Part shown: positions 8,731 through 10,163 of the stretch, one piece after another | Numbering within the stretch: position 1 is the first letter of the stretch | How the letters are laid out: the number at the start of each line of letters is the position of its first letter | Assembly (NCBI RefSeq): GCF_900451175.1 | Contig: NZ_UGJJ01000001.1 | Coordinates: forward strand, 119,910-151,909 | Source: Kingella potus | Lineage (GTDB): Bacteria; Pseudomonadota; Gammaproteobacteria; Burkholderiales; Neisseriaceae | Direction of reading: 5' to 3' | DNA: 32,000 nt | Position numbers and translations under genes: made by a program | The notes under the pieces: model-generated | Told to the model about the DNA's origin: nothing | The model's input: only the letters and a program-made list of their open reading frames with translations | Database searches by the model: none

Positions 8731-8828
8731 CCCACCCAAACGCGACGCACCCGAAAGGGTAGGCTGTTTTTTCCAGTTTCTTTCAAAATATCATTTGATT
8801 TTGAAAAAACTGGAAACAAACCGCCACT
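8731..8828 (+). repeat. structured repeat copy R1 (CCCACCC motif, small hairpin, then a long bulged hairpin at 8762-8825)
   Basis: Similar to the copies at 9657-9748 and 10068-10163. Arms 8762-8789 and 8798-8825 pair, leaving one unpaired C in each arm. Confidence 0.8.
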
Positions 8829-8910
8829 TTTTGCCTTTCGAGCGCATCACTCCCACCCTTTTTTTTCGGTACCGGAGATGCTGGCACAAGGCCGAGCAGC
8901 AACCCGTTAC

Positions 8911-9199
8911 GTTACAAGGCCGCTTTGATTCGGGCGGGGGCTGTCAGCCCAGTCATCGCAGGCGTTCATATGGGTCTACGTGATTAAAAAAAATTTGGAT
9001 TGGAAAGTAAAGCGGTATTCATAACGAAATGTAAAGAGCATGAGAAAGCAAGTAGGCTTTCCCATGCTCTTTACATTTCGCTACAAACCTTCCGCTTTAC
9101 TTTCCAATCCAAATTTTTTTGAAACACTCCGCCCCATACGAACTGCGATAACTGGACCGACAGCTATAAACCCCGCCCGAATCAAAGCGGCCTTGTAAC
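8911..9199. repeat. 289-bp imperfect palindrome (candidate ssDNA hairpin: packaging signal or complementary-strand origin)
   Basis: Perfect 29-bp outer arms (8911-8939 / 9171-9199), perfect 29-bp inner arms (8987-9015 / 9092-9120) and perfect 18-bp arms (9025-9042 / 9063-9080). The apex is near 9051-9056. The segments between the outer and inner arms (8940-8986 / 9121-9170) match only imperfectly. Confidence 0.85.
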
Positions 9200-9287
9200 T
9201 TCACTAGCTGTTTGCCCCGCCGCCAGCTCCTCCAGTCCCGAGCTGTATGGGGGCATACCTTTTTAACCATAGTTAAGGAAATTTGTT

Positions 9288-9620
9288 ATGTACTATTATT
9301 TCAATACTGAAAAACTTGAATTTGCAGAATATGACGCAGACGACTTAATTCTTTATTTTATTAAAGAGTGCGAAAGGGGAGGCTGTTACGGTCCCGTTTA
9401 TTGGCACGATGATGAAACAGGCTTCATCATGCGCCTAAACGAAGCCGGAAACGACGAACCGCTTTATAACCGGCCTTTCACAAAGGCAGATGCGAAAATT
9501 ATATTACTTGGAATCGCAGAATTTTACATTGAACAAAAAAATCTACCCGTATTCCGGCATTACATGGAGGCCGTAGATTACGCCCTAGAGTATATGCGCG
9601 ATTTACTCCTGAATAAATAA
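9288..9620 (+). CDS. hypothetical protein (110 aa), prophage cargo
   Basis: AAGGAA RBS at 9275-9280, ATG at 9288, and a clean ORF in AT-rich DNA. I recognise no family. Confidence 0.6.
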   Translation: MYYYFNTEKLEFAEYDADDLILYFIKECERGGCYGPVYWHDDETGFIMRLNEAGNDEPLYNRPFTKADAKIILLGIAEFYIEQKNLPVFRHYMEAVDYALEYMRDLLLNK

Positions 9621-9627
9621 AGCGCAA

Positions 9628-9647
9628 CCGCCCGAGTTTTCGGGCGG
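9628..9647 (+). terminator. hairpin after the 110-aa ORF
   Basis: CCGCCCG-AGTTTT-CGGGCGG lies 8 nt after the stop. There is no clear T-run. Confidence 0.35.
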
Positions 9648-9656
9648 CACGCGCTG

Positions 9657-9748
9657 CCCACCCTAAGCACTTTTGAAATGAAGACGGTTTTTTTCAGTTT
9701 CTTTCAAAATGTAATTTGATTTTGAAAAAACTGAAAACAAACCGCCAC
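9657..9748 (+). repeat. structured repeat copy R2 (long bulged hairpin at 9685-9744)
   Basis: Arms 9685-9710 and 9719-9744 with loop GTAATTTG. It has the same two single-C bulges as R1 and R3. Confidence 0.8.
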
Positions 9749-9800
9749 ATAAAGCATTTCAATTCATGCTTTACCCACCCTAAATTTAAGGAATATCAAA

Positions 9801-10025
9801 ATGAAAAAAATTGACAGAATCAGAAACTATATAAAAAACAGAGTATTATCCTGCGGAATAAATGAAGCAATTACAGAAGCAAGCGAAAAATTCGACGTAT
9901 TTATTTATAAGGATTTTCCCCATGAATATACGAAAATCAGAGTAGATTTTGTAGATTTGGAAATTTTCACAAACAAAACAAAAAGACATATCGGCAGAAT
10001 TTCAGTTAATAAAACACTTTTTTAA
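9801..10025 (+). CDS. hypothetical protein (74 aa), prophage cargo
   Basis: AAGGAA RBS lies upstream of ATG 9801. The ORF is followed by a DUS-based hairpin (10036-10060) and repeat R3. Confidence 0.5.
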   Translation: MKKIDRIRNYIKNRVLSCGINEAITEASEKFDVFIYKDFPHEYTKIRVDFVDLEIFTNKTKRHIGRISVNKTLF

Positions 10026-10067
10026 TTAATTAAATAGGCCGTCTGAATTTTCAGGCGGCCTTTACTT

Positions 10068-10163
10068 CCCACCCAATCCGCCGCACCGAAAGGGTAGGGC
10101 GGTTTTTCGGGATTTCTTTCAAAATGTAATTTGATTTTGAAAAAATCACGAACAAACTGCCAT
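10068..10163 (+). repeat. structured repeat copy R3 (long bulged hairpin at 10098-10161)
   Basis: Arms 10098-10125 and 10134-10161 with loop GTAATTTG. The middle of the stem differs from R1/R2 in sequence but still pairs (CGGGA/TCACG versus CCAG/CTGG). It is followed by T7. Confidence 0.8.

Follow-up and report, generated by a model that had tools for sequence, protein, structure and literature searches.

A 32,000-nt stretch of DNA from Kingella potus (assembly GCF_900451175.1, contig NZ_UGJJ01000001.1, positions 119,910 to 151,909; hereafter the window) carries a filamentous (inovirus) prophage of 8.2 kb on its minus strand, with guaA and pdxJ on either side, and the 2.4 kb that separate the phage gene zot from the left dif-like site of this prophage contain three copies of a long imperfect hairpin bracketed by the motif GGGTGGG. 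This hairpin, which we call H, is apparently an undescribed cis-element of a clade of XerCD/dif-integrating filamentous phages of the Neisseriaceae, in which it occupies a fixed position ahead of a changing set of genes that run against the phage operon. It resembles the structured signals that rolling-circle replicons form on single strands, and looks like a variant of them made unusual by its G-motif bracket and by its link to a cassette-like slot. We tentatively propose that H may be a single-strand start site for host RNA synthesis, that is, a minus-strand origin or a promoter on single-stranded DNA (ssDNA), a reading that we consider possible rather than probable. The copies in the window, together with a short module next to one of them, are:

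10068-10196, minus strand: module R3, at position H1 beside zot, made of GGGTGGG, a 115-nt imperfect hairpin (core 10098-10161) and GGGTGGG.
9657-9780, minus strand: module R2, an extra copy, made of GGGTGGG, the hairpin (core 9685-9744) and GGGTGGG.
8731-8858, minus strand: module R1, at position H2 past a giant inverted repeat, made of GGGTGGG, the hairpin (core 8762-8825) and GGGTGGG.
8665-8737, minus strand: the short module, made of GGGTGGG-TTTAAAA-GGGATGGG, a 40-nt hairpin and GGGTGGG, with one G motif in common with R1.

The three hairpins had been noticed in an initial annotation of the window, and they are present where it placed them. A 33-nt core, TTTCTTTCAAAATNTNATTTGATTTTGAAAAAA, matches three times in the window, always on the window's + strand, whereas 100 shuffles gave an expectation of 0. 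Folded as ssDNA, the cores of R1-R3 reach -19.4 to -20.0 kcal/mol and shuffled sequences only -6 to -7 (z -6.0 to -7.3; 0 of 200 shuffles equally good), and the two single-base bulges that the annotation described appear in the predicted folds. Its statement that a segment of variable sequence stays paired in each copy fails at R3, where CGGGA/TCACG contains one mismatch; the orthologue of R3 in the related locus L167 pairs perfectly at this segment (CGCGG/CCGCG). The annotated extent was right for the cores but too short for the element, as R1-R3 are the tips of imperfect stems of 117-122 nt: a single stem spans all of the sequence between flanking CCCACCC motifs (GGGTGGG on the phage coding strand; motif pairs at 8731/8852, 9657/9774 and 10068/10190), and the full-length stems fold at -24.7 to -32.5 kcal/mol on the phage strand. 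Rfam had no match in the window at the gathering threshold.

Relatives were collected from IMG/VR and metagenomes through alignment of Zot proteins, giving 159 loci (L008-L166), and eight further loci (L167-L174) were added through homologues of ORF110, a reverse-oriented gene of the window. A covariance model built on a 73-nt core and scanned against the window and 168 related loci gave strong matches of 64-93 bits on the zot-bearing strand only, with 21-40 bits on the complement. Searching for more copies in this way, as the annotation had suggested, found them clade-wide, with the pairing and the extrahelical bases kept: the element is present in every locus of the clade whose Zot is at least 55% identical to that of the window, and no strong matches were obtained in distant relatives with a Zot identity of 51% or less. 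Redundant direct copies are tolerated, since every sufficiently long clade contig has two of them, about 890 nt apart, with H1 after zot and H2 past a reverse open reading frame (ORF) and the giant inverted repeat, and there are three in the window (R3 as H1, R1 as H2 and R2 as the extra copy) and likewise in L167-L170. Module R3 is orthologous to H1 of L088, L167 and L171, and R1 to positions 8145-8274 of L091, where the short module also has a counterpart (8268-8341) of the same arrangement, with compensatory changes. The core pattern was not found in deposited phages, the closest of which has a Zot identity of 48.5%, or in IMG/VR, and a genome-wide repeat or miniature inverted-repeat transposable element was rejected because the pattern is absent from 185,579 species-representative genomes, bar two unrelated chance matches. 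H is a clade-specific phage element and not a host repeat.

Conservation of this element lies in its structure. RNAalifold, given 22 distinct modules aligned with MAFFT, recovered the long hairpin with compensatory double changes in 23 of 36 pairs; within the core, 11 of 23 pairs have changes on both sides, and 96% of the core cells are paired, compared with 45-67% when partners are slid by one to three columns. These values bear out the selection on structure that had been suggested from the three copies alone, and the conserved extrahelical bases are also confirmed, with one extrahelical G in each A/T helix, two per hairpin. The hairpins of the clade are imperfect, 110-140 nt long, and have one of four tip types (CAAAAT/ATTTTG, GCGGAAG/CTTCCGT, CAAGTG/CACTTG or CAGGTG/CACCTG), whose stems differ while the A/T helices that flank them, ATTTTT(C/G)...GA(A/T)A(G/A)AA, are conserved. 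The fold is also specific to one strand, as the annotation had supposed: of 33 distinct variants, 31 are more stable when the phage strand is folded than when the complement is, and each hairpin has 2-8 G.T pairs on the phage strand and 0-2 on the complement, although many of the loci are closely related and the strand and structure counts are thus not independent. The complementary strand nonetheless folds at -20 to -49 kcal/mol. In Ff phages, the packaged strand is established to have the sense of the forward genes. If, as we infer by analogy, the phage coding strand is likewise the packaged (+) strand, the element would be built to fold in virion or rolling-circle ssDNA. One hairpin, H1 of L090 (5766-5911), is chimeric, with a 5' arm of the L008 lineage and a 3' arm of the L013 lineage joined in the conserved tip; it is poorly folded (-26.6 versus about -39 kcal/mol) and looks like the product of recent recombination within the hairpin. 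On the evidence of this chimera, the hairpins mark recombination joints.

The bracketing motif is as strand-biased as the fold that it encloses. Nine of the 11 copies of CCCACCC in the window lie within 8387-10259, all on the + strand, and across 1.19 Mb GGGTGGG occurs 193 times on the phage strand and nine times on the other (166 versus two in 41 clade loci). In all copies of the window's lineage and at every H1, brackets stand 1-2 nt off the stem base on both sides. Outside the motif, no more than a weak T is conserved to either side of it, and one bracket of L088 reads GGGAGGG, its G tracts kept and its T not. Two further copies in the window lie apart from the modules:

8387-8393, minus strand: a lone GGGTGGG, past a conserved non-coding block and adjoining the end of the twin membrane ORFs of the prophage.
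10253-10259, minus strand: GGGTGGG inside the 3' end of zot, in the codons ATG GGT GGG, where it encodes Gly-Gly; it varies synonymously in relatives and may therefore merely reflect coding.

With a bracket at either side, H has the sequence layout of a quadruplex-duplex hybrid: the G3 tracts number four, single T residues would form 1-nt loops between them, and the hairpin would be the central loop. The G3TG3 brackets may clamp the base of the hairpin in this form; a short protein site is equally possible as the identity of GGGTGGG. Contiguous G3TG3 versions occur in relatives (GGGTGGTTGGGTGGG, GGGTGGGTGGGTGG), and a canonical G-quadruplex motif lies within the short module, at 8716-8737. Such canonical motifs are found at conserved spots, yet on the other strand too in distant relatives, so that motif counts decide nothing. 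The pilE G-quadruplex of Neisseria gonorrhoeae is G3TG3TTG3TG3. Like it and like quadruplex-duplex hybrids, H has four G3 tracts and putative 1-nt T loops, each bracket corresponding to half of the pilE motif; unlike it, some copies of H have one bracket only, and there is no link to pilin variation. A polar host motif of the KOPS or Chi kind is not favoured, since GGGTGGG shows no enrichment in 23 kb of host DNA (0 and 2 copies) and the GC skew of the window has no switch at dif, though these data are few. The target-site duplication of an inserted element was rejected as an origin of the motif pairs, the spacers from CCCACCC to the core differing between copies and the motif pair enclosing unrelated short hairpins in some relatives. 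An orientation bias was also seen in the pentamers GGTGG/CCACC, which are all in one orientation in the prophage (7842-16039; 20:0), in L012 (15:0) and in L101 (17:0), and it was noted for L013 and L010 too. CCACC is the site of the NgoAX type III restriction system; type III cleavage is escaped by sites in a single orientation.

Behind the hairpins, in the sense opposite to the phage operon, lie the reverse-oriented genes and their terminators, together with the giant inverted repeat:

9801-10025, + strand: ORF74, an orphan reverse cargo gene behind R2.
9288-9620, + strand: ORF110, the reverse gene behind R1 and the giant inverted repeat.
9622-9655: the terminator of ORF110, a GC-rich hairpin that adjoins the CCCACCC of R2.
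10036-10061: a hairpin terminator with the DNA uptake sequence (DUS) GCCGTCTGAA, with ORF74 on one side and R3 on the other.
8906-9204: the giant inverted repeat, which relatives also have in conserved form; its stem is about 145 bp long.

In the sense of the reverse ORFs, the hairpin base is always succeeded by CCCACCC, about 10 nt, a ribosome-binding site (RBS) and ATG. The distance from CCCACCC to the start codon is 14-36 nt in 11 of 11 lineages with cargo adjoining H, and R2 and ORF74 fit this rule (CCCACCC-TAAATTTAAGGAATATCAAA-ATG, the base of R2 being 21 nt upstream of the ORF74 start on the window's + strand). The phage (+) strand is the template for these cargo genes. The initial annotation had taken the hairpins as the 3' ends of the cargo segments that precede them, a view that cannot be maintained: the phage genes are on the minus strand, so the hairpins are elements upstream of the reverse gene that follows, and, in the sense in which ORF74 and ORF110 are read, they lie upstream of both. 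Empty slots retain the leader, and R3, with no reverse ORF behind it, stands before such a slot.

Between zot and H1 in loci L012-L022 and L093-L108, we found zero to three ORFs behind H1, drawn from at least nine unrelated families in varied combinations (for example, 64, 118 and 102 aa in L101, 118 and 129 aa in L013, and 118, 129 or 102 aa alone elsewhere). They run head to tail, each with a similar short leader, AACAGGAGTTTAGAA-ATG; the arrays close at the DUS terminator adjoining zot, and no array ORF in these loci has a known domain. ORF74 has no homologue among 5.8 billion protein clusters, the homologues of ORF110 fall in two clusters only, both from related prophages, and neither these genes nor the twin ORFs gave Pfam or PHROG matches. 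That cargo would differ between relatives exactly at hairpin boundaries proved true of the upstream (hairpin/CCCACCC) edge. Similarity between the window and L167 continues through R2 and its CCCACCC, ends at the RBS and returns about 40 nt before the DUS terminator; at the position of ORF74, L167 has an unrelated ORF79 and a decayed remnant of ORF74 (L167 6740-6830). Compared with L088 and L171, the window has an extra block consisting of terminator, ORF74 and R2. The cassette layout that had been proposed thus stands in its association of hairpins with cargo but not in its allotment of one hairpin to each ORF, none being found between the ORFs of multi-ORF arrays; the slot is a hypervariable array whose fixed front edge is hairpin, CCCACCC and RBS. 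The terminators carry the DUS dialects of their hosts, GCCGTCTGAA in the window (10038-10047) and L008, a Kingella-like form in L010 (~6630-6660) and an Eikenella-like form in L119 (~8165-8200), and from these differing dialects the phage clade spans several genera of the Neisseriaceae.

Beside H2, the giant inverted repeat is likewise more stable on the phage strand, with 4-9 G.T pairs against 0-2. It has a conserved mismatched segment near its tip (GGTTTGTA / TATGAATACC) and stops about 80 nt upstream of ORF110.

The initial annotation had likened the hairpins to folded ssDNA recombination sites, either integron attC sites or the attP(+) of CTX-phi, and had offered strong terminators as an alternative. 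H does resemble attC, in that it is a single-strand fold with two conserved extrahelical bases, keeps structure over sequence and stands beside variable genes, but this is a resemblance only. Integrons have R''/L''/L'/R' core sites, IntI and one attC site per cassette, whereas R'' (RYYYAAC) and R' (GTTRRRY) have no match on either strand of all three modules, no gene for an integrase or another recombinase turned up in the prophage or in the window's large ORFs (those outside the prophage are housekeeping genes), and H precedes the first gene of an array, a single hairpin standing upstream of two ORFs in L013 and three in L101. Like CTX-phi and other elements that integrate through XerCD, the prophage, which is filamentous, is flanked by dif-like sites, here with exchanged arms; unlike CTX-phi attP(+), whose folded stem is formed by two inverted dif-like XerC/XerD binding sites, however, the hairpins contain no XerC or XerD arms, the only dif-like sites in the window (four mismatches or fewer) are those at 7814-7841 and 16040-16067, at the prophage ends, and one conventional dif-like attP, of the kind that the VGJ type uses, explains the integration. 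The wider idea that H is a site at which folded ssDNA captures or exchanges cassettes, with or without such kinship, could appeal to the extrahelical bases and strand-specific fold, to cargo boundaries at the module edge, to the extra hairpin that accompanies an extra cargo gene in the window's lineage, and to the chimera in L090. Nevertheless, the joints of the arrays of two or three ORFs lie in the shared RBS leader with no hairpin between them, and homologous recombination between conserved flanks, together with natural transformation, is enough for exchange; we regard this explanation as very improbable. We think it just as hard to credit that the hairpins are plain intrinsic terminators between convergent or tandem genes. 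They do lie between transcription units, and, as the annotation stated, T-runs follow R1 and R3 (on the window's + strand) and not R2. These T-runs, however, are not kept in the closest relatives, L167 and L171, relatives of the common tip type have none on either strand, the stems are AT-rich, and a terminator scan calls none of the hairpins. As each reverse ORF is already served by a terminator beside the module, either GC-rich or with a DUS, and no T-run is conserved, a terminator role is not needed, and it fails as the function of the family.

Two other explanations take up the position of H in the phage genome. As a packaging (morphogenetic) signal, the (+)-strand hairpin would be recognised by Zot/pI and the tip proteins to begin extrusion, like hairpin A of Ff, which is also an imperfect (+)-strand hairpin right after the last morphogenesis gene. 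The strand-specific imperfect fold of H, the location of H1 directly after the last assembly gene, zot, and a tip type that tracks the Zot lineage would all suit such a role; the Ff packaging signal comes after gene IV. For integrative filamentous phages, most packaging signals are still unknown (bioRxiv 10.1101/2023.12.30.573655). Yet the Ff signal is single-copy and about 78 nt long, whereas H is G-bracketed, and two to three direct copies some 400-900 nt apart would be unexpected if the signal sets one end of the virion. Two different tip types occur in L091, the giant inverted repeat competes as a candidate, and the tight coupling to reverse-gene starts would go unexplained, all of which make packaging an unlikely function. 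Somewhat less remote, though still doubtful, is ordinary regulation at the level of double-stranded DNA or RNA, with H as operator or promoter, 5' untranslated region or insulator of the cargo operon and its strand bias a by-product of mutation. The run of hairpin, CCCACCC, RBS and ATG is after all the fixed upstream edge of the cargo array, the complementary strand also folds well, and copies in one genome have common loops, a trait compatible with gene conversion or with a binding protein specific to that genome. Against this, covariation keeps the pairing and not the sequence, the reverse-sense strand tolerates 2-8 C.A mismatches per hairpin, and there is nothing to regulate at R3 and the empty slots. 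No convincing sigma-70 boxes were found, by scan or by eye, in the stems or upstream of ORF74 and ORF110 on either strand; TTGAAA...TACCCT at a spacing of 19-20 nt occurs in one tip type only. Inspection of the loops by eye gave no match to the IHF consensus.

The start-site proposal was reached from two observations taken together, the selection for folding of the (+) strand and the fixed place before genes templated by that strand, as it is the only known kind of element that explains both. With the phage genome in single-stranded form, whether incoming virion DNA or rolling-circle product, the hairpin would stay clear of single-strand binding protein and act as a place where host RNA synthesis begins on the (+) strand, either as a single-strand origin or as an ssDNA promoter, functionally akin to the M13 minus-strand origin, the ssoA origins of rolling-circle plasmids and Frpo of the F plasmid. 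The RNA would leave the base of the hairpin via GGGTGGG, and it could prime the complementary strand, serve as immediate-early mRNA of the reverse genes 14-36 nt beyond the motif, or both. Several observations weigh against this proposal. No gene lies behind R3 or behind H1 of the empty-slot relatives, R3 is one of the two exceptions that are more stable on the other strand, and the stem reconstitutes no -35/-10 pair in any tip type, as judged from a promoter scan and from reading the 3' arms. H2 of the common lineage has the 3' GGGTGGG only and lacks the 5' one, so that full bracketing is not a strict requirement. Part of the G.T excess could come from a C-to-T mutation bias of the packaged strand and not from selection, and the giant inverted repeat is an equally good candidate for the minus-strand origin. 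A more elaborate form of the start-site proposal, which we find improbable, is that G-quadruplex-clamped hairpin promoters or primers work only on the ssDNA genome, the host polymerase transcribing the cargo before the complementary strand exists; that this would make H the phage counterpart of the Frpo promoters in the leading regions of plasmids, attached to a cassette-like slot, is an analogy to which we give similarly little weight.

Known single-strand signals offer partial parallels to H. The minus-strand origin of Ff phages (M13/f1) and ssoA are, like H, imperfect (+)-strand hairpins in intergenic regions of rolling-circle replicons with a Rep, and ssoA contains the recombination-prone RSB site. 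Membership of ssoA was rejected, as CS-6 (TAGCGW) occurs in no module; H also differs from these origins in lacking sequence similarity or an Rfam family, in being multi-copy and in being interleaved with reverse genes. The Frpo/ssi elements of the plasmids F and ColIb-P9 also share traits with H: they are long imperfect hairpins that form on the entering strand only, are orientation-specific, are repeated as direct copies and lie upstream of variable accessory genes templated by that strand (PMC9849209). In the F plasmid, two direct copies of Frpo that are 92% identical drive early genes from the entering strand (PMC9849209). H is correspondingly a long, imperfect, orientation-specific hairpin on what is presumably the packaged strand, and it lies upstream of genes templated by this strand in 11 lineages and at R2/ORF74, though not at R3 and the empty slots. 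Frpo, on the other hand, reconstitutes canonical -35/-10 boxes, none of which are seen in H; Frpo hairpins are about 300 nt long and reside on plasmids, whereas those of H are 110-140 nt and reside on a phage, and the GGGTGGG brackets have no Frpo counterpart.

The remainder of the prophage is that of a filamentous phage that integrated at dif. The annotation had assumed an ssDNA phage, and the family matches show a filamentous one: the gene set comprises Rep_trans, a Phage_Coat_B coat gene, a pIII-like gene, DUF2523, Zot and small ORFs. The window is identical in sequence to a Neisseriaceae chromosome contig (GCA_050432965.1) and matches CP091516.1 at 99.9%. Its main landmarks outside the hairpin region are:

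14429-15739, minus strand: the Rep_trans rolling-circle initiator, by family match.
11365-11649, minus strand: the DUF2523 gene, by family match.
10199-11356, minus strand: zot, the gene I homologue and final gene of the phage forward operon, by family match.
7814-7841, + strand: the left dif-like site, AGTTCGCATAA-TTTATA-TTATGTGTAAT.
16040-16067, + strand: the right dif-like site, ATTTCGCATAA-TTTATA-TTATGTTAAAT.

The two dif-like sites are in direct orientation, and both outer arms (XerC-binding and XerD-binding) differ between them. Exchanged outer arms are the expected residue of XerC-side strand exchange between chromosomal dif and phage attP, which identifies the prophage as a XerCD-exploiting integrating element (IMEX); the relatives L091, L092, L019 and L099 are likewise dif-associated and attach via conventional dif-like sites. 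Outside the left dif site, phage-like DNA at 7220-7813 contains a 55-aa ORF and a truncated helix-turn-helix ORF (7285-7443) homologous to a repressor-like gene beside attP in L012 (3852-4190), and probably remains from an older prophage copy in tandem. GC skew is negative on both flanks of dif across the 32-kb window, with no switch at the presumed terminus. Upstream of Rep, a hairpin at 15767-15791 (minus strand; C8, TATCTAACA, G7) is identical in L008, and at this position in relatives GGGTGGG comes after long runs of C and G; the hairpin is a candidate plus-strand origin or nick site. Another candidate replication signal is the non-coding block at ~8500-8645 (minus strand), conserved in L091, L010 and L012, in which TTAGGGAT(T)AG, GCGAAAATGAA, a hairpin, TTTAGTTGAGTT and a GC-rich hairpin (AGCCCGACCCCGCCC...GGGCGGGG) follow one another in this order.

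In conclusion, the cis-acting signals of integrative filamentous phages, including the packaging signal and the minus-strand origin, are mostly unknown, and H is a well-defined candidate for one of them. Even on the ordinary regulatory reading, the analysis delimits a clade of Neisseriaceae inoviruses that integrate at dif and are without close kin among deposited phage records. The GGGTGGG brackets would offer a natural quadruplex-duplex hybrid for study. If RNA synthesis does start at H on the incoming strand, ssDNA phages, like conjugative plasmids, would express accessory genes before becoming double-stranded, which would account for the upkeep of a reverse-oriented, rapidly exchanged gene array at this element.

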